Source of the DNA: Escherichia phage kvi
Length of the DNA: 64,000 nt
Sequence record: MN850615.1
Strand: one strand, 5' to 3'
Below the pieces are notes generated by a model, which worked only from the letters and a program-made list of their open reading frames with translations, was not told the origin of the DNA and searched no databases. Positions 17,746-39,857 of this stretch are shown in pieces; the first letter of the stretch is position 1, and every line of letters begins with the position of its first letter. A program made the translations under genes and the position numbers.

Positions 17746-18223
17746 CTAAATCATTGCAATATTTTAGTGCCTTAGTTTGAAATTCTGCGCTGTTAAGTTC
17801 TTCATAACGGTCATAATCACCGTTTAATGCTGCCTTTCTTGCTTCTTGCTCTATCTGCATGTCAGACATGATAATACAGCGATCCCGTGCTTTCATCTTC
17901 TCAAGTTGTATAGACTCTTCTTTCTGCTTGCGCAATTCTTCTTGACGCTTCTTTTCTTCTTGTGCTTTCTCTTCCTGCGCTTCTTTGATTGCATCCTTGA
18001 ACATCTGCGTTTGTGGTGCTAAACCAACTTTAACGCGATCCACGTCTCGACGTTCCATTTTAGAAATAAAGCACGATTCGATCTGATCATCACTTGCATA
18101 TGCTGCTTTACATTCACGAAGCAAGAAAACCGGATCTGATTTAGCATTCATCATAGCTTCCATGTTGGCACAACCAGTAAGCATGAATGCAGCCGCAAGA
18201 CCAATCAGTTTAATCATTTTCAT
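17738..18223 (-). CDS. Predicted lipoprotein
   Basis: 161 aa; signal peptide with lipobox LTGC; Glu/Lys-rich coiled segment. Confidence 0.6.
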   Translation of the reverse strand: MKMIKLIGLAAAFMLTGCANMEAMMNAKSDPVFLLRECKAAYASDDQIESCFISKMERRDVDRVKVGLAPQTQMFKDAIKEAQEEKAQEEKKRQEELRKQKEESIQLEKMKARDRCIIMSDMQIEQEARKAALNGDYDRYEELNSAEFQTKALKYCNDLAK

Positions 18224-19044
18224 TTAGTCACCTCACCGAAAATTGTAAATTGTCTACGATTCTCATCGCCGAAAGATTCTACTACGTCGTTTACCTTGAC
18301 GCAAGTCCCGCGCGGTAAAATTACTTCACATTCGCAAGGGTTCCATGCAATTGACCCAACAACAAAACCTTTATGATCTTTTACGTCAATTACCCATGAT
18401 ACATTACAAGAATGCTGCATCTTTCCGGTCATTGATTCATATCGATTCTCACAATAAAGGCTAGTGCTGTTTGATAGCCATCCTCCAAAGATGATTGGTG
18501 TCATGCTGGTCGATACAAAGTTTTTAAAGGTAAACTCCTTATCTTCAATGATGCGCTCTATTGTCTGAATGTCAAGATGTTGACCGCGATAAAGAGTACC
18601 GTTTAACTTTTCGGTTTTATCCATGACACAATCCATCAAATCAACAATCTCTGATATCTCATCGGTCATGTCTTCTTCCCCTAAGAGAGCACCATTTACC
18701 CATTCGTATTGCTCAGACACATAATCACAGATTGCATTATATTCTGCTGGTGTTATGTTGTTATGTTTGTAATGTTTGAATACATTATCTCCAAAGTCTT
18801 CGGAGTGTACTTCATACATCACATTAATGATTTTCTTGACAAATCCATAATCTTGTGTCTCACGCTCAAGGAAGCGGATAACCTTCACATAATCATCAAA
18901 GTTAATCTGATCGCTGATCATCTCAGTGATCATGTAGCCATTAATCCCCTCAATGTCATATGTTTCGATGTAATTATCCATACGTTCCATCATTGATTCG
19001 CGTGATTCTTCCGAAAGACGAAAATCCTGTAATTTCTTGAACAT
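18220..19044 (-). CDS. ADP-ribosyltransferase, Alt/Mod family (second copy)
   Basis: 274 aa; R-S-E triad: LYRGQ, FVSTS, ECEVILPRG; paralogous to Alt C-terminal domain. Confidence 0.8.
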   Translation of the reverse strand: MFKKLQDFRLSEESRESMMERMDNYIETYDIEGINGYMITEMISDQINFDDYVKVIRFLERETQDYGFVKKIINVMYEVHSEDFGDNVFKHYKHNNITPAEYNAICDYVSEQYEWVNGALLGEEDMTDEISEIVDLMDCVMDKTEKLNGTLYRGQHLDIQTIERIIEDKEFTFKNFVSTSMTPIIFGGWLSNSTSLYCENRYESMTGKMQHSCNVSWVIDVKDHKGFVVGSIAWNPCECEVILPRGTCVKVNDVVESFGDENRRQFTIFGEVTK

Positions 19045-19061
19045 TTTAAACCTCCCATATA

Positions 19062-19095
19062 ACAGAAAACGGGGCTAGTATAAAACTAGTCCCCG
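19062..19095 (-). terminator. Hairpin/terminator between alt and downstream ART gene
   Basis: CGGGGCTAGT..ACTAGTCCCCG stem, T-run on - strand. Confidence 0.45.
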
Positions 19096-19122
19096 TTTGA
19101 GTCAACCATTATTTCTTAAAAA

Positions 19123-21174
19123 TTACATTTTAAATTTATCTGGCATTGCGTCTACAGATACCAGATCAGCGATAAGCTGACGTAGAGTTGCCTTATCTGC
19201 TTTCTTACGTTCGGTTTTAGCTTCGCTAATGAAGCTGGAGAAAGACAGGTCAGAAGCAGGTTTAACAACACCTTCACGGATGAATGCATCACCGTCCGCG
19301 ATCATCTCGCCAGATTCTTGTAATGCTGCCAGTTCATTTTTGTTCATAATATGTGCCTCAATGTAATAAGTTTCTTGTGAATCCGTCGATGCCGTAGCAC
19401 GAGTTACCGTATCAAAGGATAACACAACACCGCGAGGAAGTAAAATCTCGCATTCTTTGTAAGCAAATGCTTTGTTACCTACTGGCAAGACAGGGATGTT
19501 TTCCGCGCCAGCAATGGAGAAAGCAACATTAGCGCCACCTTCACCACGAGAGCCAGCCATAGAATCAACACCAGCAACGGCACTAGCCACGTTTGCATTC
19601 CAGCCGCCAAAAATGTTAGGTGCAAGGGAAGTGCTCACATAGTTTTTAAAGTAAAACGCTTTTTGCTTACGTGCAGTTTCCCACATTTGCGACCGGAAGT
19701 CCATACCACGATACAGAATAGTACCCGGATCAAGTTTAACTCCATAGTTGGAGAAGGCATTATCCAGTGCATCACACATCTTGACCAATTCTTCTGGATC
19801 TGCGATGCCTTCAAACTCTTCCAGCTTACGGTCGGTTAGGAAGTTGTTCATATTGATGTATGCTGCATCGGCATATTCGCTCAACACAAAACCTTCCGCG
19901 CCCGGCAGATCAAGATCAATATCTGCCATCATTTCACCCATGTTGCTAGCAATTGCTTCAAACATACCGGAAGCAACATTACGTAGGGCATCGGTTTTAA
20001 TCTGGGTGATGTGACTACGCAGCATTTCAGCTTTTACATCTGCTGGCATAGACTGGTCTACTCGATCCATTGCCAGGGCGGTGATCTTGTTTTCGAATAC
20101 TTCCTCGCTCATGATTTCTTTTAAGCGTTTGATTGATGCTGCGATAACTTCCGCAGACAATGGATCATATTGATCCTGAACTTTTACCAGTTCGCTTACT
20201 GCGTATTTTGCATCGGCTTCGCTTTCAAAAATAGTACGCATGAAACCATAGCGAGTGATAATATCACTTGTCCAGTCATTCAGAGAACGAGCGGTTGAAC
20301 GTTCTAAGGCTTGACGGTCAATCAGAGTATTAAACTGTTTCTTAGGTTCTGCTTCGGTGATATCTTCTTCCGGTTTAAGATTAATTTTTTCTGGATGATT
20401 CACATAGTCGCTGTTATAGGTCGCTTGAGTTTTCAGCATTTCTTCTTTAGTCAAACGAGATTTAGCCGCTACGCGTTGTTCTGCTTCCGCGTTTCGTTCT
20501 TCTTCTGACACAAGACTAGCCGCATATGCCTCATCTTTAGTCAGAGATTCACCAGTAGCCTTAGATACCCAGCGATCACCTAAATCACTTTCTACTTTAG
20601 TGAACAAGGATTCATCAAGTTTAATCCCTTTAATCTTATCAATCGCCATCCCGCGACGCTTGACAACAACTAAAGCGATCTTTTTGCTGGTCATTACTTC
20701 CTGCTGGAATACTTCAAACTTCGGTGTACGACGCACCAAACGCTCTATAACGCGCTTAACCAGTTCGGTCTTACCTTTCATGCGGGATACGTTAAAACGG
20801 AACATAACAGCGTCTAATTGCGCTTTACGGGCTGTTTCCATAACCACATCAAAAGCACTTGACATAACTGCAATCGGGTTATCGCCTAGACCATTTTTAA
20901 GCTGTACAATACGACCGCTTTTGTTCATTTCGCACAGTACAACATGTGCGGTCTTGTCACCCATACGAATGATTTTAGGTGTTTTGTTGGTGAAGTTACA
21001 AAGACGGACAATCACATCTTTATCGCGTGTCTGTACTGCAAAAAGCTGTTTAGGATTCTGCTTAGGCTTTAAGCACTGTACCGGAGCAATACTGCCAAAG
21101 TTTTCTTCCTCTTCCGTCAACAGCCATTTCTCGAAAGATTCAATCATTAGATCGTCGATTTCTAAGTTAAACAT
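19123..21174 (-). CDS. alt: Alt ADP-ribosyltransferase
   Basis: 683 aa (T4 Alt 682 aa); ILYRGMD, YVSTSLAPNIFGG, ECEILLPRG. Confidence 0.9.
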   Translation of the reverse strand: MFNLEIDDLMIESFEKWLLTEEEENFGSIAPVQCLKPKQNPKQLFAVQTRDKDVIVRLCNFTNKTPKIIRMGDKTAHVVLCEMNKSGRIVQLKNGLGDNPIAVMSSAFDVVMETARKAQLDAVMFRFNVSRMKGKTELVKRVIERLVRRTPKFEVFQQEVMTSKKIALVVVKRRGMAIDKIKGIKLDESLFTKVESDLGDRWVSKATGESLTKDEAYAASLVSEEERNAEAEQRVAAKSRLTKEEMLKTQATYNSDYVNHPEKINLKPEEDITEAEPKKQFNTLIDRQALERSTARSLNDWTSDIITRYGFMRTIFESEADAKYAVSELVKVQDQYDPLSAEVIAASIKRLKEIMSEEVFENKITALAMDRVDQSMPADVKAEMLRSHITQIKTDALRNVASGMFEAIASNMGEMMADIDLDLPGAEGFVLSEYADAAYINMNNFLTDRKLEEFEGIADPEELVKMCDALDNAFSNYGVKLDPGTILYRGMDFRSQMWETARKQKAFYFKNYVSTSLAPNIFGGWNANVASAVAGVDSMAGSRGEGGANVAFSIAGAENIPVLPVGNKAFAYKECEILLPRGVVLSFDTVTRATASTDSQETYYIEAHIMNKNELAALQESGEMIADGDAFIREGVVKPASDLSFSSFISEAKTERKKADKATLRQLIADLVSVDAMPDKFKM

Positions 21175-21214
21175 TTTATATCCTCTAGTTGATAACCTAT
21201 AAACCTATATTTAT

Positions 21215-21236
21215 GAAAAAGGGGCTTAACGCCCCC
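21215..21236 (-). terminator. Terminator closing the accessory early block
   Basis: GGGGC-TTAAC-GCCCC with flanking A/T runs. Confidence 0.5.
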
Positions 21237-21241
21237 ATTTA

Positions 21242-21454
21242 TTATAATGCACCATCGAGCAATTGCTCTAAGGTGTATCCTGAATAGTCTTTTTCAATAA
21301 GGGTATATTTTCCTACTCGTTTAATCCAGCCACGCATTTCAACGTATTCTGCGTAGTTGATGGTGCGAGTTGTTCCATCTTCCAGTAATGCAGTACCGAT
21401 TTCGTTAATGCGGTCATAAGTTACGTCGGTAATGATGATTTCGATGTTAGCCAT
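21242..21454 (-). CDS. Hypothetical protein
   Basis: 70 aa; AAGGAG SD; downstream of promoter at 21491. Confidence 0.5.
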   Translation of the reverse strand: MANIEIIITDVTYDRINEIGTALLEDGTTRTINYAEYVEMRGWIKRVGKYTLIEKDYSGYTLEQLLDGAL

Positions 21455-21490
21455 TTGATACTCCTTAGTAGTTCGTTTCGGTATGGGTGT

Positions 21491-21519
21491 ATTATGATAT
21501 ACACCATCTGTTATGTCAA
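21491..21519 (-). promoter_or_regulatory. Early promoter cassette (TTGACA-17-CATAAT)
   Basis: rc of TGTCAAC..ATTATG plus conserved leader CGAAACGAA..GGAG. Confidence 0.6.
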
Positions 21520-21525
21520 CAACTT

Positions 21526-21690
21526 TTAGAACATTTTTGAAATTAATTCTGCTTTGATTTCGCAGAGAACATCTAAAGATTTCTCGTCACCCGCTTTTGC
21601 TGCTTCTGCTTGCATTTTTGAAATGGCTTCAATGTCAGTGCAATTATAAGCCGCTTGAACTTTAGCGATTGCGATGATTAAGTGTTTCAT
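21526..21690 (-). CDS. Hypothetical small protein (54 aa)
   Basis: Not in track; AGGAGA SD; immediately downstream of promoter at 21723. Confidence 0.4.
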   Translation of the reverse strand: MKHLIIAIAKVQAAYNCTDIEAISKMQAEAAKAGDEKSLDVLCEIKAELISKMF

Positions 21691-21722
21691 GTTTGATTCT
21701 CCTTTCGTTTCGGTATGTGTGC

Positions 21723-21752
21723 ATTATGGGGGATCACCGATCCCCCTGTCAA
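21723..21752 (-). promoter_or_regulatory. Early promoter with palindromic spacer (PeSL-like)
   Basis: TTGACA-GGGGGATCGGTGATCCCC-CATAAT on - strand. Confidence 0.65.
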
Positions 21753-21759
21753 CAATTTT

Positions 21760-22278
21760 TTAGTTATTTTTTAATTGCTCATCTTGCAATAGGGCAATCA
21801 CATGCTGGCGATGTTCTTCCGATTGAGGCACACCGAAAAAGTTTGTTTTGTAGAAATACTCTAATCGGTCTTCTCGTGTGCTCTCTTCCATCATGATCGC
21901 GGGTAGTCCGAGATTTCTGAAACGTCGCTTTTCTGCTGGCGTAAAATCACTGTAATACAACATAGAATCATCATTACAAGCAATGCTAAACTCATCATTC
22001 ATAAAGGAGAATATTGCGTTTAAACGCTGTTTACCGTCCACGATTTCGATCTCATAGCGAGAGCCATCATCAATCTTAGCCATTGCGATAGCACCAACCG
22101 GAAAATCATTAATAAGGTTTTCGATAAACATACGTTTGTTTTCGGTGTCCCATACTAAAGGACGCTGATAATCTGGGTTCATGTTGATATAGCCATCTTC
22201 TAACCATGCATCATAAACAGAGATGACAAAGTTTTTAGTATTGGTATAGTAACGGCGTTTAGGCGTTAAACGGTTCAT
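21760..22278 (-). CDS. DUF262 / ParB-like (GmrSD N-terminal-type) domain protein
   Basis: 172 aa from ATG 22278; PDYQRPLVW and IVDGKQRLNAI match DUF262 signature; no nuclease domain. Confidence 0.6.
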   Translation of the reverse strand: MNRLTPKRRYYTNTKNFVISVYDAWLEDGYINMNPDYQRPLVWDTENKRMFIENLINDFPVGAIAMAKIDDGSRYEIEIVDGKQRLNAIFSFMNDEFSIACNDDSMLYYSDFTPAEKRRFRNLGLPAIMMEESTREDRLEYFYKTNFFGVPQSEEHRQHVIALLQDEQLKNN

Positions 22279-22279
22279 G

Positions 22280-22612
22280 TTATAGTCTCCTGAATGGATC
22301 ATCACGTAAATCAATATCTTTTAAGAACTCATCCCATGAATGCCGGATATTGTTCTTAATTCTCCAGATAAGCGCAGGGATTGAACGCTCTCCCATCTGG
22401 AAGTATGGATCATATGATCCGTATGCCCAATATGCTACTACAATTCCACAATCAGCGCAATAGTATTCTATTTCACTGGCTGGCGACCAAAGTCCATCAA
22501 TATGATCGGTGATCTTGCTTTCGATGTTATGGCTATGACAATCAGGGCAACGGATGCAATGACCTTGTTTATCGTAATTTGACGTTAGCGAATACTTAAA
22601 CAATCTCATCAT
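22280..22612 (-). CDS. Zinc-ribbon protein
   Basis: 110 aa; CIRCPDC ... CADCG; ATGATGA overlap with upstream gene. Confidence 0.55.
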   Translation of the reverse strand: MMRLFKYSLTSNYDKQGHCIRCPDCHSHNIESKITDHIDGLWSPASEIEYYCADCGIVVAYWAYGSYDPYFQMGERSIPALIWRIKNNIRHSWDEFLKDIDLRDDPFRRL

Positions 22613-23325
22613 AGATCCTTATTTGCTTCAAATACTGCCTTTGCGAATCCTCGCGGGGTAAGTGACCTGATAGTCTTTGTTTTCGTTCCTTTCCCGCCTA
22701 GCTTAGAATGCTGTTTACTGTACCCTTTATTAATCTGCAACGGTTTCTTTTCTGGCATTATAAAGCCTTGTCCGGTCCATAAGCAAGTCTTTTTCGGGTA
22801 CATATCACGGGCGGCGATATACTCAGGAAAAGTAGGATGTTTATCATCTTCCGGCAAATAACCGCCATATTCCCACGGGTGGAACATGTAATCAGGCTTA
22901 CGCCACATGCTAGAGATAACGCTTACAGGATTCTCTATCATGTAGGGAACTCCTAGCCATTCACCCAAATAAGCGGTTATTTTAGCTGCCCTTACATCAT
23001 GAACTTGAATCAATGGTCCTTGTTCTCGTTTCTTTCGTTCAAAGTGTGCAGCGCCACTAACAGCTAAATTGGTGCACGGTGGGAATGCAAAGATAATATC
23101 CGGTTTCCCCCATTCAAGGTCCATTGCTCTTTCCAGCCAGTTCAAATCAATCCAGGTGTTTACATAGGTAATGTTTGGATGTTCAAATCTGGTATTATAC
23201 TTTTTGTATGTGCCGTGGTCGCCATCATCAGCATTAAAGCAGATCACCTTATGACCTGCTTTAGCCCATTCTAGCCCCATTATCCCCGATCCGTCAAAGT
23301 TACAGAATATTAATTTTTGTTTCAT
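22609..23325 (-). CDS. Compact DNA C5-cytosine methyltransferase-like protein
   Basis: 238 aa; motif I FCNFDGSG, motif IV FPPCTN, motif VI MIENPV, C-terminal RSLTPRGFAKAV; very short variable region. Confidence 0.6.
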   Translation of the reverse strand: MKQKLIFCNFDGSGIMGLEWAKAGHKVICFNADDGDHGTYKKYNTRFEHPNITYVNTWIDLNWLERAMDLEWGKPDIIFAFPPCTNLAVSGAAHFERKKREQGPLIQVHDVRAAKITAYLGEWLGVPYMIENPVSVISSMWRKPDYMFHPWEYGGYLPEDDKHPTFPEYIAARDMYPKKTCLWTGQGFIMPEKKPLQINKGYSKQHSKLGGKGTKTKTIRSLTPRGFAKAVFEANKDL

Positions 23326-23567
23326 ATACGCCCCTTTAATCCAACACAGATTTTAGAAGGTTCTTTGCCGTGCCACATTAAGTAAAGTCCGTTAATGCGG
23401 CCTTGTTTTGTATATGATTCTTTTCTGATCTTCTTATAGTGTCGTGTTTCCTCAACTGATTGTTTAGAATACCAATCATAAAGGAAGAGGCACAAAGGCC
23501 AACCATTAGCGGCCTTAATGCAGTTATTAAGAAATTCCTTATTGCGTTTAATTAATTTTCTTTTCAC
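23322..23567 (-). CDS. Hypothetical protein (GTG start, translationally coupled)
   Basis: 81 aa; GTGA overlap with upstream stop. Confidence 0.4.
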   Translation of the reverse strand: MKRKLIKRNKEFLNNCIKAANGWPLCLFLYDWYSKQSVEETRHYKKIRKESYTKQGRINGLYLMWHGKEPSKICVGLKGRI

Positions 23568-23815
23568 GCTGCCCCCATTGGTTTGATAGTAACAGAATCT
23601 AAAAGACCTTTGTTAGCCAGTTCGCGGCAAGTTTTCAGATCCGCAACTTCCCAGCCAGCCGCAATCAGGTTATCAATGAGGCTGTTAGCAACTTCTTCGC
23701 TCATGAAAGAGCACTGTTTGCCGATGGTGTAGCGTACACGCTGTAATTTCAGTTTACGGAAGCCTTTAACGTTCAGGTCTTTAGCGATTTTCTTTGCGGT
23801 TTCGATGTTAGCCAT
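23564..23815 (-). CDS. Hypothetical protein (first gene of 5-gene operon)
   Basis: 83 aa; AGGAGA SD; preceded by promoter at 23856. Confidence 0.5.
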   Translation of the reverse strand: MANIETAKKIAKDLNVKGFRKLKLQRVRYTIGKQCSFMSEEVANSLIDNLIAAGWEVADLKTCRELANKGLLDSVTIKPMGAA

Positions 23816-23855
23816 TGTTTGATTCTCCTAAGTGGTATCTCGTCTTGATGGTTGT

Positions 23856-23884
23856 ATTGTAGGGGAGTTATCCTCCCCTGTCAA
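23856..23884 (-). promoter_or_regulatory. Early promoter with palindromic spacer
   Basis: TTGACA-GGGGAGGATAACTCCCC-TACAAT. Confidence 0.6.
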
Positions 23885-23898
23885 TACTTTTTATAAAA

Positions 23899-24066
23899 TT
23901 ATTTGTTAATTTCTGGTGCGTTGCTAGGATAGTAACCTTCTTTAACACCCAGATATTTTGCAACCATTCCTACAATCTTCTGTGCTACTACAATGTCAAA
24001 TTTCAGATAATCTTCGCCGTGGGTTTCAATGATATATGCTTCACATGCTGCTTTAGTCTCGAACAT
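23899..24066 (-). CDS. Hypothetical 55-aa protein, paralog A
   Basis: MFETKAACEAYIIETHGEDYLKFDIVVAQK...; near-identical to 27180..27347. Confidence 0.45.
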   Translation of the reverse strand: MFETKAACEAYIIETHGEDYLKFDIVVAQKIVGMVAKYLGVKEGYYPSNAPEINK

Positions 24067-24099
24067 TTTGATTCTCCTATTTCGTTTCGGTATGTGTGT

Positions 24100-24128
24100 A
24101 TTATAGGGGATCTCCCGATCCCCGTCAA
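24100..24128 (-). promoter_or_regulatory. Early promoter with palindromic spacer
   Basis: TTGACG-GGGATCGGGAGATCCCC-TATAAT. Confidence 0.65.
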
Positions 24129-24142
24129 CAACTTTTTTAAAA

Positions 24143-24424
24143 TTATTCGTGATTAGTTTCGATGTTGTACATTTTGCACCAGTTCAGCCAATCGCCCAGA
24201 TCTTGATAGTTGATGCTTTTATCTGCTGCCATCGTTTTTGTCTTGATACCCATATGTGCGTTATGAGTAAGCATTTTTACAGTGAACTCAATTTTATCGC
24301 CTTTAGCTTTAACATCAACCAGTTTGGTCCACTGGCTACCAGCGCCGCGAATGTTCATACCAACGATGTTTCCGATGTATGCTTCTTTGTTTTTCAGGAT
24401 TTCGGTTGCTTTGATGAATTTCAT
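24143..24424 (-). CDS. Hypothetical protein
   Basis: 93 aa; conserved leader/SD. Confidence 0.55.
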   Translation of the reverse strand: MKFIKATEILKNKEAYIGNIVGMNIRGAGSQWTKLVDVKAKGDKIEFTVKMLTHNAHMGIKTKTMAADKSINYQDLGDWLNWCKMYNIETNHE

Positions 24425-24457
24425 TTTTGATTCTCCAGTTCGTTTCGGTATGTGTGT

Positions 24458-24486
24458 ATTATGCTATGTTCTTACTTTGGTGTCAA
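24458..24486 (-). promoter_or_regulatory. Early promoter (TTGACA-17-CATAAT)
   Basis: rc of TGTCAA..ATTATG with conserved leader. Confidence 0.6.
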
Positions 24487-24494
24487 CAACTTTT

Positions 24495-24764
24495 TTAGAT
24501 ATTTTCAGAAATAAATTTTAAAACTTGACGTAAATGTTTCTCATCTTTGATAGACGCCGGAAGTTCTTCTTTTACTTCCTGTGCAAGATAGATATTTCCG
24601 TTCCAAGTGAAAGATCCGTCTTCGTTTACGCGATAGCTGAACATCCACTCGCAATCATTTTCGATTTCATATACACACAGAAGGGTGTAATCGTTAAAGC
24701 TATTGATTTCAAGGTCGAAGCCGTGACGTTTTGCAAAGTTGGTAGTGGTTTTAGTCAGCGCCAT
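24495..24764 (-). CDS. Hypothetical protein
   Basis: 89 aa; AGGAGA SD. Confidence 0.55.
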   Translation of the reverse strand: MALTKTTTNFAKRHGFDLEINSFNDYTLLCVYEIENDCEWMFSYRVNEDGSFTWNGNIYLAQEVKEELPASIKDEKHLRQVLKFISENI

Positions 24765-24804
24765 TGTTTGATTCTCCTAAGTGGTATCTCGTTTCGATGG
24801 GTGT

Positions 24805-24833
24805 ATTATGCTATAGGCGTGATCTGGTGTCAA
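24805..24833 (-). promoter_or_regulatory. Early promoter (TTGACA-17-CATAAT)
   Basis: rc of TGTCAA..ATTATG. Confidence 0.6.
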
Positions 24834-24854
24834 TGTTTTTTTTAATTTTATGCA

Positions 24855-24881
24855 ATAAAAAAGCCGACGCTAAGGTCGGCT
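24855..24881 (-). terminator. Rho-independent terminator (- strand)
   Basis: AGCCGAC-GCTAAG-GTCGGCT followed on - strand by TTTTTTATT. Confidence 0.6.
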
Positions 24882-24938
24882 AATAAAATCATTTAGACAA
24901 ATAATCATTCTGCGCAATCCGGTCGGCGTATGCTGGTG

Positions 24939-25196
24939 TTATGTCAATCGCCAGCACTTTAACGCGTGCTTTCTTACGACCTGGTTTTCTCGTAACCAGT
25001 GCTCATGACCGTGAACATTTTTATACTGCGATGCTTCTTCGAAGGTACGGATCGGACCTGGGTAATCAGCGTAAAGGATCTCTAGATCTTCGGTGATGTA
25101 AAAATATACATCATAATGGCTGTTCTCTAGTTTAAGCAGAGAGTTGCGAAATTGTGGTAAATTCTCGCGGGTAAATTCAACTACAAGATTTTTCAT
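24939..25196 (-). CDS. HxHW-family small protein, apparently frameshifted/truncated
   Basis: 85 aa from ATG 25196; family motif HGHEHW present but conserved VLAIDI tail is in another frame ending at 24889. Confidence 0.4.
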   Translation of the reverse strand: MKNLVVEFTRENLPQFRNSLLKLENSHYDVYFYITEDLEILYADYPGPIRTFEEASQYKNVHGHEHWLRENQVVRKHALKCWRLT

Positions 25197-25219
25197 AGTG
25201 ATATCCTCATTCAGATAGA

Positions 25220-25243
25220 TTAAAAGGGGGGCGTTAATCCCCC
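25220..25243 (-). terminator. Terminator-like hairpin
   Basis: GGGGG-CGTTAAT-CCCCC with A/T flanks. Confidence 0.4.
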
Positions 25244-25248
25244 ATATA

Positions 25249-25536
25249 TTAAAACAGTCCTTCCTGTACACCGTAGTAGAGTTCGTCGCTGATAATTTCA
25301 TTAATGCGACGGTGTGCATATTCCTGATTTGCGAAGTTGTCAGCAAGTTCTACTTTAGTTTCGCCGTCATGAGTCCATTTAGTGATAACTTTACCATCTG
25401 CAAATTTGAAGTTGAACTCTTTAGCTACTGCATCGCGTACCAGACGTGCGAACTTGTTGTTACGGATTGCATTGTCTGTTTCGTTTGCAGCGTGAGCAAA
25501 TTTGTTAACTTTCAGAGTGATAGTAATGTATGCCAT
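25249..25536 (-). CDS. Hypothetical protein (AKEFN family)
   Basis: 95 aa; RLVRDAVAKEFN; paralog of 28564..28875. Confidence 0.55.
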   Translation of the reverse strand: MAYITITLKVNKFAHAANETDNAIRNNKFARLVRDAVAKEFNFKFADGKVITKWTHDGETKVELADNFANQEYAHRRINEIISDELYYGVQEGLF

Positions 25537-25582
25537 AATTTTATTCTCCTAGTTAGAAAGTGTATCTCGTTTCGATGGGGAT

Positions 25583-25611
25583 ATTATGCTATATCCCCGA
25601 TCCGGTGTCAA
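25583..25611 (-). promoter_or_regulatory. Early promoter (TTGACA-17-CATAAT)
   Basis: rc of TGTCAA..ATTATG. Confidence 0.6.
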
Positions 25612-25617
25612 CACTTT

Positions 25618-25896
25618 TTATAAAATAATTTTTTGATATTTTTCTATGATGTTCGTGTAAGTCACATCAACCGCTAGCACCGTTGCTTCGAATCCACCGT
25701 TTAGCCAATGGCTATGATCATGATCGTGAAAGAAACCTAGACCAGTACGAAGACCTTCTTTATATTCTGCGCGTACATTCAGTTTGTCGTCGATAAACAG
25801 ATAAAACCATGAATTTTTACTAGGATTGATGATACAACCTTTCAGATTAGGGAGAATATCACGACTAAGAATAAACTTATCACCTACTTTGAACAT
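25618..25896 (-). CDS. HxHW-family small protein
   Basis: 92 aa; FHDHDHSHW..VLAVDV. Confidence 0.5.
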   Translation of the reverse strand: MFKVGDKFILSRDILPNLKGCIINPSKNSWFYLFIDDKLNVRAEYKEGLRTGLGFFHDHDHSHWLNGGFEATVLAVDVTYTNIIEKYQKIIL

Positions 25897-25900
25897 AATA

Positions 25901-26221
25901 TTAGTCCTCACTTATAAGGTCAAACCAATTGTTTTTCGCATAATGCTTAATGCGTGCTTGATCTGCTTCCGCTGGTGATAGATTCCATGCAACCACTACA
26001 ACTTCTGACGCATCGTCATCCGTTTCTGATACCCAATGATTGTGATTCATACAGTTATTTGCTATCGAGTGAGCAAATGATTTCATCACTGGAGACGTAT
26101 AATCATAGTAACGGATTTTCAGATTTTCATCAACGTACAAATAGATCGTATAAGGTTTATATTCAGTAACCAGTAACAGACAGTTACGCAATTCTGGGAA
26201 AATCTTTTTAGTTAATTTCAT
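25901..26221 (-). CDS. HxHW-family small protein
   Basis: 106 aa; NHNHW..VVVVAWN; N-terminus similar to 24939 member. Confidence 0.5.
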   Translation of the reverse strand: MKLTKKIFPELRNCLLLVTEYKPYTIYLYVDENLKIRYYDYTSPVMKSFAHSIANNCMNHNHWVSETDDDASEVVVVAWNLSPAEADQARIKHYAKNNWFDLISED

Positions 26222-26222
26222 T

Positions 26223-26441
26223 TTATAATCCTCGGTCGCGGCTATAGTACACGGTACGCCATACAATTTCATGTTTCGTGTCGCTCCAGCACACGATCTC
26301 ATTTACTCTTAAATCTTTGTTATCAACAAAAGATGAACATTGTGACGCTTCTTTCATCATTTTATATGCTGTTTTCTCATCAAATACAGCACAGATTTCT
26401 TTATACACTCGATAATCTTTGAATTGACTCTGGATACCCAT
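26223..26441 (-). CDS. Hypothetical protein (paralog pair with 26401..26658)
   Basis: 72 aa from ATG 26441; FKDYRVYKEI..KMMKEASQC. Confidence 0.45.
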   Translation of the reverse strand: MGIQSQFKDYRVYKEICAVFDEKTAYKMMKEASQCSSFVDNKDLRVNEIVCWSDTKHEIVWRTVYYSRDRGL

Positions 26442-26658
26442 AATTAACACCATTCCAACCAATTGTTTTTGAGAAAACGTTTATCCACTGTTGAGTGTAG
26501 CATGTTTCTTTCCATGATACAATACGAGTAGAATAATGGTTTTTGTTTCCAGAAAAGGACGGGCATTTTGATGCATCTTCCATCATCTTTTCGGCGAACT
26601 CTGGTGCGTATACTCGCAGGATCTGTTGATATGCTTTGTATTCTTTAAATTTGCTCAT
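26401..26658 (-). CDS. Hypothetical protein (paralog pair)
   Basis: 85 aa; FKEYKAYQQI..KMMEDASKC; 3' end overlaps next gene in another frame. Confidence 0.45.
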   Translation of the reverse strand: MSKFKEYKAYQQILRVYAPEFAEKMMEDASKCPSFSGNKNHYSTRIVSWKETCYTQQWINVFSKTIGWNGVNYGYPESIQRLSSV

Positions 26659-26923
26659 AATCATTCACTACCTTATCAGCTTCTTTTGTTGTTTTTACAT
26701 CAACTGCGATAACTCGTAAATGTTCGTCATGGTTCCACCAGTGGTCATGAATATCAGCTTGTGATTTATCACCAAAGGAATCACGAATATCATTTTTACA
26801 TTTATAGCTAATGTGACCTTCATAGTCAACATAAAGGTAATTATCGAAAATCGGCGTTTTTAAGATCATACCGAAAAATCTTTCTTTGTGTGTCTTATCC
26901 AGCGTTGCAGTAATTCGCATCAT
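26645..26923 (-). CDS. HxHW-family small protein
   Basis: 92 aa; IHDHWWNHDEHLRVIAVDV. Confidence 0.5.
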   Translation of the reverse strand: MMRITATLDKTHKERFFGMILKTPIFDNYLYVDYEGHISYKCKNDIRDSFGDKSQADIHDHWWNHDEHLRVIAVDVKTTKEADKVVNDYEQI

Positions 26924-26935
26924 AATATATTCCTC

Positions 26936-27115
26936 TTAGAAAGGGATGGTCATTTCTTGAGCTTGTACATTCTCGTTAGGATTAAACTTCATCCAACCGA
27001 TATTGTCTACCAGCATATGCACATTTTTATCATATCCTACGTGGGTAGTCAATACTGTATGTGCTTTACCTTCAATGATGAGTTCCATGTACTTCTGAAC
27101 TTCGATAGCTTTCAT
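26936..27115 (-). CDS. Hypothetical small protein (59 aa)
   Basis: Not in track; conserved leader; downstream of promoter at 27148. Confidence 0.4.
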   Translation of the reverse strand: MKAIEVQKYMELIIEGKAHTVLTTHVGYDKNVHMLVDNIGWMKFNPNENVQAQEMTIPF

Positions 27116-27147
27116 TTTGATTCTCCGTTTGTTGTCTTGATGGGAGT

Positions 27148-27176
27148 ATCTTACTACTCCCTTTAATCATTGTCAA
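27148..27176 (-). promoter_or_regulatory. Early promoter variant (TTGACA-17-TAAGAT) with hairpin over -10
   Basis: GGGAGTAGTAAGATACTCCC palindrome overlaps -10. Confidence 0.5.
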
Positions 27177-27179
27177 CTA

Positions 27180-27347
27180 TTATTTGTTAATTTCTGGTGC
27201 GTTGCTCGGATAGTAACCTTCTTTAACACCAAGATATTTTGCAACCATTCCGGTGATCTTCTGTGCTACTACGATATCGAATTTCAGGTAGTCTTCACCG
27301 TGGTTTGCTACAATGTACGCTTCGCATTCTGCTTTAGTCTGGAACAT
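27180..27347 (-). CDS. Hypothetical 55-aa protein, paralog B
   Basis: MFQTKAECEAYIVANHGEDYLKFDIVVAQK...; duplicate of 23899..24066. Confidence 0.45.
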   Translation of the reverse strand: MFQTKAECEAYIVANHGEDYLKFDIVVAQKITGMVAKYLGVKEGYYPSNAPEINK

Positions 27348-27381
27348 TTTTGATTCTCCTATATCTCGTTGGTATGTGTGC

Positions 27382-27410
27382 ATTATAGGGGATCGGTGAT
27401 CCCCTGTCAA
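27382..27410 (-). promoter_or_regulatory. Early promoter with palindromic spacer
   Basis: TTGACA-GGGGATCACCGATCCCC-TATAAT. Confidence 0.65.
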
Positions 27411-27415
27411 CAACT

Positions 27416-27709
27416 TTATAATGCTTTATATGCGTATTTCATAAATTTGTCTGCCACTTCATTGGCATGTTCAGATTCTACGCCTGATTCGAGAACAATA
27501 GCTAGGTCGGTTTCGTCATTCCCGCCGTACCAATGATTTGATGTTCGATTTTTTTCAATTGGAAATTGGTCACTTTTATCTGTGCGACAAAATACATCTA
27601 AATGCTCGTCGATGTAAAAGATCCAATCTTCATAAAGAATAACGGTATTAGAAAGATTTTTATTGCCTTCAACGAAAGGTTCGGCTACAAACAAATTAGT
27701 ATGTTCCAT
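27416..27709 (-). CDS. HxHW-family-like small protein
   Basis: 97 aa from ATG 27709; YIDEHLD..NHWYGG..LAIVLESGV; GAGGA SD. Confidence 0.45.
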   Translation of the reverse strand: MEHTNLFVAEPFVEGNKNLSNTVILYEDWIFYIDEHLDVFCRTDKSDQFPIEKNRTSNHWYGGNDETDLAIVLESGVESEHANEVADKFMKYAYKAL

Positions 27710-27725
27710 AGTATTTTCCTCAAAA

Positions 27726-27917
27726 TTATACAGCTTCGTAAACTTCCCAATGTCCAACACCAGCACGCTTAACGAAAAGGTTTTCTTTGATGTTATTCAT
27801 AAACGTCTGGATGGATTTAATGCGATTTGAAGGTTTCCAGTCTTCGTTGGCATTGCGTCGATACATCATAACATTACCAGTTCGCTTATATTCAGCAACC
27901 ATTTTAAGACCACACAT
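27726..27917 (-). CDS. Hypothetical protein
   Basis: 63 aa; GAGGA SD. Confidence 0.45.
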   Translation of the reverse strand: MCGLKMVAEYKRTGNVMMYRRNANEDWKPSNRIKSIQTFMNNIKENLFVKRAGVGHWEVYEAV

Positions 27918-27966
27918 AATATTATCCTCAATTTGTGGGAGAGTATTACCCCTCCCAATGATTGTT

Positions 27967-27995
27967 ATGTTATATCACACAAAATGGCGTGTCAA
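27967..27995 (-). promoter_or_regulatory. Putative early promoter (TTGACA-17-TAACAT)
   Basis: -35 lies within the 3' end of the upstream gene. Confidence 0.4.
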
Positions 27996-28295
27996 TGCTT
28001 CTTTTGCGGTTCCGCTAAGACTTTCGATCTCGCCTGGCATAACATCAACCGCCAGAACTTCTACAACATCCTCGGACCCTAACCAGTGAGTATGACCTTT
28101 GTAGAACTTAATAACCAGACTACCTTCCTCGTCCCATTTAACGCTATCGCTAGCCCACCACACATCACCGTCGATAAAGTTGATGTAAAGCACACTACGC
28201 CACATTGAATTAATTACTTTCAATACTGCGCCTTTCATCTCTTCCACGGTATGGTCTTCCATTTTGAAGACCTCACCTACCTGAACTTTTGCCAT
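27975..28295 (-). CDS. HxHW-family small protein
   Basis: 106 aa; GHTHWLGSEDVVEVLAVDV; GAGGTG SD. Confidence 0.5.
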   Translation of the reverse strand: MAKVQVGEVFKMEDHTVEEMKGAVLKVINSMWRSVLYINFIDGDVWWASDSVKWDEEGSLVIKFYKGHTHWLGSEDVVEVLAVDVMPGEIESLSGTAKEALTRHFV

Positions 28296-28312
28296 TTAGT
28301 CACCTCTCTTTA

Positions 28313-28492
28313 TTACATAACAATCACGCCAGCCGTTGAAAGTTGATGTTTCAACTGAGCATTTTCTGCTACCGTCAAATCAATGATTTCTTGTGACGCT
28401 GCAATCATATAGCCATTGGTGATATTGTTTTGCATCAGTTCAATGGTTTCTTCGTTGTAGCGGATTTTAGCGATGATTTCGTTGAAGTTCAT
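28313..28492 (-). CDS. Hypothetical small protein (59 aa)
   Basis: True ATG at 28492; track ORF is extended upstream through the promoter palindrome. Confidence 0.45.
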   Translation of the reverse strand: MNFNEIIAKIRYNEETIELMQNNITNGYMIAASQEIIDLTVAENAQLKHQLSTAGVIVM

Positions 28493-28526
28493 AATTGATT
28501 CTCCTAGTTCGTTTCGGTATGTGTGT

Positions 28527-28555
28527 AGTATAGGGGATCGGTGATCCCCTGTCAA
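28527..28555 (-). promoter_or_regulatory. Early promoter with palindromic spacer
   Basis: TTGACA-GGGGATCACCGATCCCC-TATACT. Confidence 0.6.
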
Positions 28556-28563
28556 CAACTTTT

Positions 28564-28875
28564 TTAAAGTTTTTCCATGATAACGGTCATAATTACATCT
28601 TCTGCGCGAGTGGTTAGATTATCAGCGTCAGCATGTGGGCGGTTGGTTGTTACAGAGATAACACCGTTGCGCACTGGTTTGATGTTGATATCAAGATGAT
28701 CCGCGAAACGTTCGCCAGTTACAGAATGAATTTTGGTGTTAAATTCTTTTGCCAGTGCCTTGCGAACTTCACGAATCAGGGTAGCGTTTTTCAGTTGGTT
28801 CTCCGCGCTCATGGTCTTCTGGGTGTTCATGGTTCCGTCGAAGTCAATCATTGGCAGCGTTACGATGTATTTCAT
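28564..28875 (-). CDS. Hypothetical protein (AKEFN family)
   Basis: 103 aa from ATG 28875; LIREVRKALAKEFN. Confidence 0.5.
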   Translation of the reverse strand: MKYIVTLPMIDFDGTMNTQKTMSAENQLKNATLIREVRKALAKEFNTKIHSVTGERFADHLDINIKPVRNGVISVTTNRPHADADNLTTRAEDVIMTVIMEKL

Positions 28876-28920
28876 TTTTGATTCTCCGTTTAAGAAAGTG
28901 TGTTTCGTTTTGATGTGTGT

Positions 28921-28949
28921 AGTATAGGGGATCACCGATCCCCTGTCAA
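28921..28949 (-). promoter_or_regulatory. Early promoter with palindromic spacer
   Basis: TTGACA-GGGGATCGGTGATCCCC-TATACT (loop inverted relative to 28527 copy). Confidence 0.6.
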
Positions 28950-28961
28950 CAACTTTTTGAA

Positions 28962-29438
28962 TTATTTTTCTTGATGCTCGCGATCGTACTTTTCGAAATA
29001 AAATTCTACTGGCTGGTCGTGGATTGACAGCAAGCCAAAGCGTTTAGCCGCTCGCAATCCCATATTGCGCTGAATGTACTTCTGGAAGTTCTCGCGTATA
29101 CACTTACGCCAGGATTCTAAGCCCATGCAGCTTTTATAAAGATTGCATTGCACACATGCCGGATTCATGTTATCAAGTATATCATGCTCCGGTTTATGCA
29201 TTCCTACAACCTTATACTTCCACGATCCATCATCATTACGGGCAATTCGTCCATTTTCATCATAGACAACCTTTGAGCGTCGTAATACTGGTTTGATATG
29301 GTCTGCGTGCCAGCGATCCCCTAGTTCCTCGCCACAATAGGCACAACGTCCACCGTATTTCATTTTCAGGATCTGACGTTGCTCTTTCTTTGACAATTTT
29401 TTAGGTTTAGGGGCTTTCGCCCCTTCATTATCACACAT
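28962..29438 (-). CDS. HNH endonuclease
   Basis: 158 aa; CAYCGE..WHADHIKPV..NMNPACVQCN; start overlaps ligase stop by 8 nt. Confidence 0.8.
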   Translation of the reverse strand: MCDNEGAKAPKPKKLSKKEQRQILKMKYGGRCAYCGEELGDRWHADHIKPVLRRSKVVYDENGRIARNDDGSWKYKVVGMHKPEHDILDNMNPACVQCNLYKSCMGLESWRKCIRENFQKYIQRNMGLRAAKRFGLLSIHDQPVEFYFEKYDREHQEK

Positions 29439-30927
29439 CGAATACCTCTTTTACTGTATTTGCAGCGGTCTTGTCGTAGCGAATACGTTTGATGATCGGG
29501 AGAAATAAAGAGAACTCCGGTTCATCTTCTTTACGTGATTTGCTGCGAATGTACCCGTTGCATGTCATCTCGATGACTTTTCCAATCAGGTTATGACGGT
29601 CAGCCCATAACATTTCTCGGTCAAGTTCATTTCGACGATCGAACGGAATTACACGTTCGATACCATCATCACCTTTTTCGGTTGTAGTGTCGGTTAATCC
29701 CGATCCGGTGTTAGTCATCATTCGTCCACACGCACTACGGACAGTAAAACCGCCTACCTTATTGGGGTCTTTACTATGCGGATATACATCAACAATTTCC
29801 GCGTCGAAGTCAATCACTTCTTTAAATTTAACCTGATCTTTACTACGGCGATCTTCAAATACACCATGTAAATTTTTAAGGATAATACCTTCTAAGCCCA
29901 TGTTGACATAACGATGATATACTTCGCGAGCTTCATCGATATTGTTAACTACAGTGTTTTCGATGATCTGAACACGAGGATCGTTAAGTTCTTCAACAAT
30001 CTGTTTTAGTTCTTCAAATCGATCTTTATATTGCTTCGTTGCTTTCTCGTTTCCGTAGTACACATCACGGTCGATAACATCCCAGACAGTGTAAACAATA
30101 CATTGGGCTTCTTCTTTTGGAATAGTTCCTTTCAGTGATTTGTTGAGGATACCATTTCCGGTCTGACGGTCTGCAACAACGGATTCTTTCACTGCTTCCG
30201 CTACTGGCGTTAATGGCATTTCCTCTTCTTCAAATATCCATGACAGAGTACCATCATAAACGCTCTCAACGAAGTTCTGCGCTGGTGTTTGCGAAAGGGT
30301 AGGCATATATACCAATTCACCATCTAGAACAATTCCACGGCCTCGTAGACGCTCTAAAACCGCAAACAAATCATCAAGTCCTTGATAGGTATTACCTGAG
30401 CGGGTATAGATTGCTAATGTTTCCCCGTCAATATCAGCCATACCACGAGCGCCATCGCTTTTAAGTTGTGCATACGCCGGATACTTGATATTAGCAATAG
30501 TCTTATCAGAACATGACGATGCAAGGTGACACGGTTGCTGGGGGATCAGTTTCTTCCATACCTTGTTTGCAGTGGTAGCGGAACAACCACATTCCAGATC
30601 ACGATTCAGGACCATCATTGCAACTTTAGCATCATCTTCTGACAAGCAAGTCAGAGTATCGGTAACTAGCTGTAATGCTGCGTTACCAGTTACTTGACGC
30701 GTGGCAAGTTTATTTTTAAAGACCTGTAATGCACCGGATAAAGACAATACAGACGAATAGCGAGATGGTTTATCGTATTTCTTTACGCCAAACGTAACCT
30801 GTTTGCAATATGCCAGATAAAAGCATTCTTTCAGTGTTTCATTGCTTGCAGATTCTTTCAGGATCTTTTCTTTCAGCGATGTTTTGTCGGTCGCTGCAAG
30901 CTGGTTAATGATATTAAGAATTGACAT
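29431..30927 (-). CDS. 30: ATP-dependent DNA ligase gp30
   Basis: 498 aa from ATG 30927; KVW..LIPQQP..LASS, AQLKSDGAR (KxDG), LDGELVY, EGIILKN, KFKEVID as in T4 ligase. Confidence 0.9.
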   Translation of the reverse strand: MSILNIINQLAATDKTSLKEKILKESASNETLKECFYLAYCKQVTFGVKKYDKPSRYSSVLSLSGALQVFKNKLATRQVTGNAALQLVTDTLTCLSEDDAKVAMMVLNRDLECGCSATTANKVWKKLIPQQPCHLASSCSDKTIANIKYPAYAQLKSDGARGMADIDGETLAIYTRSGNTYQGLDDLFAVLERLRGRGIVLDGELVYMPTLSQTPAQNFVESVYDGTLSWIFEEEEMPLTPVAEAVKESVVADRQTGNGILNKSLKGTIPKEEAQCIVYTVWDVIDRDVYYGNEKATKQYKDRFEELKQIVEELNDPRVQIIENTVVNNIDEAREVYHRYVNMGLEGIILKNLHGVFEDRRSKDQVKFKEVIDFDAEIVDVYPHSKDPNKVGGFTVRSACGRMMTNTGSGLTDTTTEKGDDGIERVIPFDRRNELDREMLWADRHNLIGKVIEMTCNGYIRSKSRKEDEPEFSLFLPIIKRIRYDKTAANTVKEVFDV

Positions 30928-31393
30928 TTTCACCTCGTTTTGTTAAACGTTCACGAATATCATTGAGGATACTACAAAATTCCGATTCAGTCAATATAGT
31001 CTTTAACGGATCAGTTCCACCTATGCTATGACGCAATTTCTTATTTCCGGTAGCGAGTAATGCTTTACAAAATTCTGGGTTATTCCGTGCCATCGTAACA
31101 AATGCCAGATGTACCAGTCTGTAATAATGCTCACTCATTCGATGAATAGGGCGACCCTGAAAATATAACATGTGATTCTCAATCTTTTCAGTTCTTCCGG
31201 TTCTTTTTGCTTTGCCACCGTGCATCAAAAAGATTTCTCTTTGTCTCTGAGGGTTCTTAAATCTTAGCCCCTGTAAAAATCCTTCTGTGCTGTTAATATC
31301 GCAACCAAATAGACGGAATGGTCTTTTATTGAAATTACTCAATTCACCCGATGGATAAGGTCCACCCGCATAGATATCAATTTCAGAAGTCAT
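30914..31393 (-). CDS. NADAR (DUF1768)-like protein
   Basis: 159 aa; GGPYPSGELSNFNKRPF..EGFLQGLRF..EHYYRLVHLAF fits the NADAR/YbiA pattern. Confidence 0.55.
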   Translation of the reverse strand: MTSEIDIYAGGPYPSGELSNFNKRPFRLFGCDINSTEGFLQGLRFKNPQRQREIFLMHGGKAKRTGRTEKIENHMLYFQGRPIHRMSEHYYRLVHLAFVTMARNNPEFCKALLATGNKKLRHSIGGTDPLKTILTESEFCSILNDIRERLTKRGENVNS

Positions 31394-36748: not shown

Positions 36749-36781
36749 CTTGATACTCCTTAGTTGTTTTGGTATGGGAGT

Positions 36782-36810
36782 ATCTTACTACTCCCGTGAT
36801 ATGCTGTCAA
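36782..36810 (-). promoter_or_regulatory. Early promoter variant (TTGACA-17-TAAGAT) with hairpin over -10
   Basis: Same GGGAGTAGTAAGATACTCCC element as at 27148. Confidence 0.5.
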
Positions 36811-36968: not shown

Positions 36969-37006
36969 TTGATTCTCCTTAAAGTGTATTTCGTTTCGAT
37001 GGGGGT

Positions 37007-37035
37007 ATATTAATACCCCCGTTATTCAGTGTCAA
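37007..37035 (-). promoter_or_regulatory. Early promoter variant with hairpin over -10
   Basis: TTGACA then GGGGTATTAATATACCCCC palindrome. Confidence 0.45.
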
Positions 37036-37539: not shown

Positions 37540-37563
37540 ATGTTCCTCCGTTTCGATGTGCGT

Positions 37564-37592
37564 ATTATGCTATGGCAAGATCAGATTGTCAA
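37564..37592 (-). promoter_or_regulatory. Early promoter (TTGACA-17-CATAAT)
   Basis: rc of TGTCAA..ATTATG. Confidence 0.6.
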
Positions 37593-39797: not shown

Positions 39798-39828
39798 AAT
39801 AAAATCCTCACTTGTTTTTGATGGTTGT

Positions 39829-39857
39829 ATTATAGCGGGGATTTCTCCCCGCGTCAA
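39829..39857 (-). promoter_or_regulatory. Early promoter with palindromic spacer
   Basis: TTGACG-CGGGGAGAAATCCCCGC-TATAAT. Confidence 0.6.

Follow-up and report, generated by a model that had tools for sequence, protein, structure and literature searches.

In the genome of Escherichia phage kvi (sequence record MN850615.1), alt, the gene for an RNA polymerase ADP-ribosyltransferase, and gene 30, the gene for the DNA ligase gp30, are separated by 8.2 kb of small genes at positions 21242–29438 of the 64,000-nucleotide (nt) stretch analyzed here (the window). We conclude with high confidence that this block is HPR3, a hyperplastic region already described for RB49-like coliphages of the genus Krischvirus, in its phi1-type layout, a genus-conserved array of small early genes that is probably non-essential. 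As judged from sequence, the window belongs to Krischvirus (Straboviridae) and is of the RB49/phi1/GEC-3S type, and the block is the known HPR3, ordinary for the genus and nothing new as a region.

The block is shared across Krischvirus

Over positions 19000–31000 the window is 98.1% identical to Escherichia phage FL37 and 95–97% identical to Ec_Makalu_001, JEP8, GEC-3S, ECD7, and phi1. Deposited phage genomes matching the region number 64, with 55 of them at 95–99% identity. We compared the locus with those of four relatives, phi1, GEC-3S, Delraymugoa, and RB49, and found the same gene order between alt and gene 30 in each (open reading frames [ORFs] ORF185–ORF212), with orthologs of all 25 block proteins at 56–100%, mostly 86–100%, amino acid (aa) identity. 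The initial annotation had taken the block for an insertion peculiar to this genome, a view that does not survive the finding of the same 25 genes in the same place in these four phages and of 64 matching genomes. It had named, as what would refute it, the same content, in the same place and with assigned functions, in well-studied phages; content and place do recur in well-studied relatives, which refutes it by half, whereas functions are not assigned there.

Recent arrival of a genome-specific mobile island between alt and gene 30 would fit the presence of alt.1 alone at this position in phage T4, a GC content that dips slightly in the central part (0.35–0.38 at 25500–28000) relative to the flanks, and the occurrence of three of the genes (g05, g10, and g04, in the numbering used below) in unrelated phage families. 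With gene set, order, and place retained in all four relatives, with 64 matching phage records, and with no integrase, transposase, or terminal repeats found bounding the block, we regard such an arrival as highly improbable.

The assignment to HPR3 draws on a published comparison of phi1 with RB49 by Arbiol et al. (2010), who named the promoter/stem-loop repeats of these phages PeSLs (promoter-early stem-loop), placed ORFan192 within the ORFan cluster of HPR3, with eight PeSLs in ~5 kb, and listed ORFs 192, 195, 196, 196.1, and 211 as an RB49-unique cluster (PMC2839356). Our window is collinear with RB49 except for three missing segments, which carry ORF192, ORF195–196 with 196.1, and ORF211. 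These are exactly the RB49-unique cluster, which supports the identification of the block as HPR3 and, from the sequence comparison, indicates that it has the phi1-type layout. The ORF192 junction (24143–24147) falls at the stop codon/AT-rich edge of the PeSL upstream of g08. ORF195–196 are flanked in RB49 by a duplicated 95-bp unit, consisting of a terminator and a PeSL, which is present as a single copy in the window (24786–24880). The third segment corresponds to an extra gene (ORF211 or ORF211-like, 114 aa) that follows the HNH gene in both RB49 and Delraymugoa.

A further departure from phi1 lies in the alleles. Genes g15, g16, and g17 (26223–26923) and g20 (27416–27709) are 97–99% identical to RB49 and 56–87% identical to phi1 and GEC-3S; against phi1 alone, g15 stands at 62%, g17 at 56%, and g20 at 69%, and g17 is 99% identical to its RB49 counterpart. 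Synonymous divergence (pS) reaches 0.7 at g15, g16, g17, and g20, whereas neighboring genes are 98–100% identical to both RB49 and phi1. Divergent alleles amid near-identical neighbors point to localized allele replacement at g15–g17 and at g20. The plasticity proposed in the initial annotation is therefore apparent both in the three indels relative to RB49 and in the 56–69% identity of g15, g17, and g20 to phi1.

Promoter/stem-loop cassettes and predicted transcription units

Eleven near-identical sigma70 promoter/stem-loop cassettes lie in the block, all on the minus strand. Each consists of an AT-rich tract, TTGACA, a spacer of 17 nt (18 nt in one cassette), a TATAAT-like box, a conserved leader (ACACACATACCGAAACGA...), GGAG, and ATG. 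In nine of the eleven, a GC-rich stem (usually GGGGATC..GATCCCC), with folding energies of −9.8 to −19.4 kcal/mol, is situated between the hexamers or over the −10 box. We searched the 64-kb window with a pattern spanning the promoter and the first part of the leader and obtained the expected number of matches by shuffling. The pattern matched 14 times against an expectation of 0.04, always on the minus strand and ten times within the block; counting the cassette with the 18-nt spacer, 11 of 15 cassettes are concentrated in 13% of the window. Repeat analysis independently grouped the cassettes into families of 58–73 nt. These results uphold the earlier suggestion that many of the genes have promoter cassettes of their own. 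Four further minus-strand PeSL-type cassettes, at 36774–36810, 36999–37035, 37556–37592, and 39821–39857, mark what by sequence is a smaller PeSL-bearing stretch ~7–10 kb beyond the block.

Given here from its lower end to the start of its −35 hexamer, each cassette precedes a gene of the block. The cassette upstream of g01 (21455–21519; pattern match) has a stem overlapping the −10 box, and that upstream of g02 (21691–21752), which carries the 18-nt spacer, has a GGGGGATC..GATCCCCC stem between −35 and −10 (−15.9 kcal/mol). The most stable stem is found upstream of g07 (23816–23884; −19.4 kcal/mol). Cassettes identified by pattern match follow upstream of g08 (24067–24128), g09 (24425–24486; a promoter without a strong stem), and g10 (24765–24833). 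Stems overlapping the −10 box recur upstream of g12 (25537–25611; −15.1 kcal/mol) and of g18 (27116–27176; −12.2 kcal/mol), where the cassette heads a g18–g13 operon. The remaining cassettes stand upstream of g19 (27348–27410; 12/12 consensus positions), g23 (28493–28555; −14.0 kcal/mol), and g24 (28876–28949; pattern match), with those of g19 and g24 being the homologs of phi1 PeSL206/205 and of PeSL211/210, respectively.

Both internal terminators predicted in the initial annotation were recovered on the minus strand: an intrinsic terminator downstream of g11 (24881–24862; computed, and annotated in GEC-3S) and a terminator-like stem-loop downstream of g12 (25243–25227; computed). A third terminator-like stem-loop on the same strand (21236–21220) separates g01, and with it the block, from alt, and GEC-3S carries an annotated terminator at the equivalent position. 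No copy of the late-promoter consensus TATAAATA lies in the block, and its absence, together with early-type promoters throughout, agrees with the earlier designation of these genes as early. From the layout of cassettes and terminators we derive ~12 short leftward transcription units, of which g07–g03 and g18–g13 are predicted to be the longest.

We propose that host sigma70 RNA polymerase would start at the 11 strong consensus promoters right after infection, and that the PeSL stem-loops and the three separate terminators would divide transcription of the block into these ~12 leftward units and stop read-through into alt. Because the cassettes are alike and arranged as direct repeats, they would also act as recombination sites: homologous recombination between these 60–100 bp repeats would allow gene cassettes to be deleted, inserted, or swapped, and could explain most of what distinguishes the relatives from one another. 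Elements of this scheme have been assayed in related phages. Promoter and terminator lacZ assays were run on PeSL206/205, 193/192, and 211/210, with PeSL206/205 of phi1 yielding ~13,000 Miller units of lacZ and the PeSL211/210 stem terminating transcription with an efficiency close to that of rrnB T1; neighboring PeSLs were found by inverse PCR to recombine, giving mini-circles with ORF192–193, ORF191–194, or ORF210 (PMC2839356). A 2014 paper extended PeSLs to other T4-like phages (PMC4122927). As a region the block is not undescribed, since HPR3 and its PeSLs are published and in part tested experimentally (PMC2839356).

Several observations weigh against our interpretation. The cassettes whose −35 elements start at 24486 and 24833 show no convincing stem. 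The junction of ORF211 falls within the final codons of the HNH gene g25, where there is no PeSL, so PeSLs do not mediate all indels. Directly observed on this sequence are the region's identity, its cassettes and stems, its indel junctions, and purifying selection on the genes, whereas promoter activity, terminator activity, and mini-circle formation are assumed by analogy with the homologous phi1/RB49 elements (PMC2839356), which places the expression evidence in phages other than this one. Finally, the non-essentiality and adaptive role of the 25 genes are predictions.

Conserved small genes and their candidate functions

Numbered g01 to g25 from the alt side, the genes are tightly packed, encode proteins of 54–238 aa, and fill ~87% of the block. 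The initial annotation of an 8.2-kb stretch of leftward small genes from alt to ligase is confirmed; its count of about 27 genes of 49–238 aa was slightly high, although the dense packing of small genes stood. We set start codons by ribosome-binding sites and by the phi1 annotation, whose matching interval likewise contains 25 coding sequences. A GGAG-type ribosome-binding site precedes most of the genes, and all 25 proteins fall into PHROG families, 23 of them labeled "unknown function"; Pfam cutoffs are reached by only two (g03 and g25). Measured against RB49, phi1, and Delraymugoa, the ratio of nonsynonymous to synonymous divergence (pN/pS) over the block is 0.12–0.25, and the genes are under purifying selection. 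AlphaFold2 models of two block proteins have predicted local distance difference test (pLDDT) scores of 88 and 93. Ribosome-binding sites, PHROG families, low pN/pS, and confident models together argue that these are real genes. That many would instead be chance frames, or pseudogenes decaying in a non-functional spacer, is suggested by the 21 of 25 lacking a characterized homolog, by the frameshift in g11, and by antisense plus-strand ORFs of up to 103 aa; set against the evidence just listed, and against the placement of every gene on a single strand, this idea has next to no likelihood. Scans of 20500–30000 detected no tRNA genes or Rfam families.

The earlier mention of several paralog families can be made precise: there are four, all confined to the block. 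The largest, which we term the HxHW family, has six members joined by a BLASTP network (3e-12 to 7e-3) and a Y...HxHW...V(L/I)AVDV signature. These are g11 (24939–25196, 85 aa, ORF197 homolog; matching positions 1–76 of 106 in phrog_9345), g13 (25618–25896, 92 aa, ORF199 homolog; pLDDT 88), and, by network and signature, g14 (25901–26221, 106 aa, ORF200 homolog), g17 (26645–26923, 92 aa, ORF203 homolog), g20 (27416–27709, 97 aa, ORF206 homolog, the weakest member), and g22 (27975–28295, 106 aa, ORF208 homolog). By sequence the family is expanded and restricted to this lineage; its predicted fold is confident, and no structural match to it was found. We raise, as a conjecture more likely wrong than right, that its members are lineage-specific, diversifying early inhibitors, each copy directed against a different host protein or defense system, with the His-x-His-Trp site possibly binding a metal or ligand. 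This function is purely hypothetical, and the family is the chief potential for novelty in the block at the gene-family level. Distant matches to the HxHW profile, in 2–7 stretches each, were seen in three much longer proteins, P0308 (203 aa), P0316 (1034 aa), and P0317 (1217 aa); these may be relatives with tandem copies or internal repeats. Within the family, g11 carries a 1-nt deletion in a C-run near 24975 relative to ORF197 of RB49 and phi1; the resulting frameshift gives a protein of 85 aa in place of one of 102 aa, without the conserved VLAIDI strand, and the short form represents a naturally inactivated allele or else a homopolymer sequencing error.

The other three families are pairs. 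Genes g08 (23899–24066, ORF191 homolog) and g19 (27180–27347, ORF205 homolog), each encoding 55 aa in phrog_8009, share 89% aa identity and a 172-nt DNA repeat at 87%. Genes g15 (26223–26441, 72 aa, ORF201 homolog) and g16 (26401–26664, 87 aa, ORF202 homolog) are 40% identical at the aa level, both belong to phrog_8471, and overlap by 41 nt in their reading frames, as they do in RB49. The last pair, g12 (25249–25536, 95 aa, ORF198 homolog) and g24 (28564–28875, 103 aa, ORF210 homolog), both match phrog_7474.

Genes with an assignable function are few. In g03 (21760–22278, 172 aa, ORF187 homolog), the GmrSD_N/DUF262 (ParB-like) domain PF03235 scores 72.5 bits against a cutoff of 33.2 (6.5e-20), and the protein covers positions 9–183 of the 417-position phrog_1583 profile. 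No second, C-terminal DUF1524/HNH-type nuclease domain was found in this 172-aa protein with Pfam or PHROG profiles, and by these matches g03 is a stand-alone N-terminal GmrSD_N/DUF262 domain minus the nuclease half. A PADLOC and NCBIfam scan of the 25 proteins, pooled so that matches are not attributed to individual proteins, returned only matches that fit the DUF262, HNH, and methyltransferase-like proteins; its NsnA and PD-T4-2_A matches probably correspond to g03.

Gene g05 (22609–23325, 238 aa, ORF189 homolog) encodes a putative short C5-cytosine-methyltransferase-like protein. It matches phrog_757 "DNA methyltransferase" at 2e-90 and displays FDGSG, PPC, and ENP motifs, while its match to Pfam PF00145 is below the cutoff (14.4 bits against 22) and covers motifs I–IV only. 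The protein leaves little room for a target-recognition domain, and no sequence match to it was found in the PDB. At the ligase end, g25 (28962–29438, 158 aa, ORF212 homolog) is an HNH endonuclease by Pfam (PF01844; 27 bits against a cutoff of 21.4, 5e-06) and by phrog_2118 (1e-54). Its start overlaps the ligase stop codon by 8 nt (29431–29438; ATGTGTGA) and it lacks a PeSL of its own; it therefore probably shares a transcript with gene 30, with coupled translation. Searches of Pfam, PHROGs, PADLOC, and NCBIfam profiles thus bear out the expectation that most functions in the block are undescribed, with 21 of the 25 genes being without a characterized homolog at the sequence level.

The DUF262 and methyltransferase-like genes lie together in 21760–23815, where the start and stop codons of g07, g06, g05, g04, and g03 overlap or abut behind one shared PeSL, forming a five-gene operon. 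It begins with g07 (23564–23815, 83 aa, ORF190 homolog, phrog_14908) and g06 (23322–23567, 81 aa, GTG start, ORF189.1 homolog, phrog_7065), and combines the DUF262 domain and the C5-methyltransferase-like protein with a CxxC...CxxC zinc ribbon in g04 (22280–22609, 109 aa, ORF188 homolog, phrog_2993; Pfam Zn_Ribbon_TF at 5.6e-4, below cutoff). We considered whether g03-g04-g05 might be a traveling DNA-modification or anti-restriction module and rejected this, as the g05 homolog stands alone in a T1-like contig and in the rV5-like phage SSE121, with no homologs of g03, g04, g06, or g07 near it in either. The g07–g03 combination is, from these comparisons, not conserved outside Krischvirus.

To follow individual genes outside the genus, we ran tblastn with 22 block proteins against 50,697 phage genomes, and describe here the 60 matching records listed out of 656. 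Among these, g10 is widely common to coliphages, T1-like and rV5-like phages included, at 45–70% identity; g04, g09, g12, g01, and g06 occur sporadically outside Krischvirus; and the remaining query proteins are confined to Krischvirus and close relatives. Homologs of g04 are found in Nonagvirus and FelixO1-like phages, and the g05 family comprises 7310 clusters, mostly of ~230 aa, spread over many phages.

We infer that the products of the block may act in host takeover or counter-defense, and the host-interaction role proposed in the initial annotation is likewise a prediction. A stronger version, which would add a layer to the HPR3 assignment and is no alternative to it, holds that the block is mainly a dedicated counter-defense island built on the HxHW, DUF262, and methyltransferase-like proteins. 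Early promoters, small genes, and replacement of alleles at g15, g17, and g20 among close relatives speak for it, as do the expanded, lineage-restricted HxHW family, the nature of g03 as a nuclease-less copy of the N-terminal domain of GmrSD-type defense enzymes, and the possibility that the putative g05 methyltransferase methylates DNA. Yet none of the proteins has a sequence or fold match to a characterized anti-defense protein, no dedicated anti-defense library having been searched, and g03-g04-g05 do not form a conserved module elsewhere; a literature search for Krischvirus anti-defense work found nothing relevant. We hold this version to be possible, and on balance doubtful.

The remaining genes of the block are g01 (21242–21454, 70 aa, phi1 ORF185 homolog, phrog_10679), which is 99–100% identical at the aa level in relatives; g02 (21526–21690, ORF186 homolog, phrog_20811), which is 5 aa shorter than its homologs in relatives (54 against 59 aa); g09 (24143–24424, 93 aa, ORF193 homolog, phrog_10521), with 40% identical homologs in KP15-like T4-type phages; g10 (24495–24764, 89 aa, ORF194 homolog), with a predicted RWD-like alpha/beta fold; g18 (26936–27115, 59 aa, ORF204 homolog, phrog_15082); g21 (27726–27917, 63 aa, ORF207 homolog, phrog_16334); and g23 (28313–28492, 59 aa, ORF209 homolog, phrog_14803). 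The flanking genes are also on the minus strand. The lower, alt (19123–21174; Pfam ADPrib_exo_Tox, 2.2e-09), matches alt of phi1 and RB49, and the upper, gene 30 (29431–30933; DNA_ligase_A_M, 2.8e-22), encodes an ATP-dependent DNA ligase and is followed by gp30.3. Directly downstream of alt lies a second, shorter ADP-ribosyltransferase gene (18220–19044, 274 aa; ADPrib_exo_Tox, 4e-16), the counterpart of RB49 ORF183; T4 has the alt.-1 and alt.-2 remnants there.

The architecture of the region and the mechanism of its shuffling were published in 2010, and the present block is one more isolate's version of the region. What remains of value is a catalogue of 21 conserved early genes under purifying selection with no function in any library. 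For screens of Krischvirus therapeutic phages for host-takeover or counter-defense functions, it offers as targets the HxHW family, the widely traveling g10, and the nuclease-less DUF262 protein.

Comparison with T4, integrons, and published HPR3

The T4 gene order is 30, alt.1, alt, with only alt.1 (62 aa, 189 nt) in the interval. The initial annotation, which had alt directly next to gene 30 in T4, was thus nearly right, overlooking alt.1, and its description of the block as an expansion relative to T4 holds, with one T4 gene facing 25 here. The flanking genes and leftward early orientation of the T4 interval are as in the window, and the small early clusters of T4 (30.1–30.9, nrdC.x, and mobD.x among others) repeat the theme of small non-essential early ORFs. 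We searched 150 kb of T4 by tblastn, all but the late structural genes at 98–118 kb, and none of the 25 block proteins has a significant homolog there, the best E-value being 0.022 and off-frame; HxHW and g10 profiles likewise gave no match in the searched 150 kb. With no homolog in the T4 regions searched, T4 genetics cannot annotate the genes of the block.

Integron and superintegron arrays offer an analogy, since in them too small ORFan cassettes alternate with repeated recombination sites. The likeness extends to excised circular cassette intermediates, which have been reported for PeSLs, and Arbiol et al. noted that ORF211 resembles a Vibrio superintegron ORF (PMC2839356). Unlike integrons, the block has neither an integrase nor attC sites, each PeSL brings its own promoter, and recombination between PeSLs presumably proceeds through the phage's general homologous recombination machinery.

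The closest counterpart is HPR3 of RB49 and phi1 itself. It occupies the same position, shares the 25 genes and the cassette architecture with the window, and shows indels bounded by cassettes in the same manner. The window differs from it in allelic detail only, combining the phi1-type layout with RB49-type g15–g17 and g20, a frameshifted g11, and a shorter g02.

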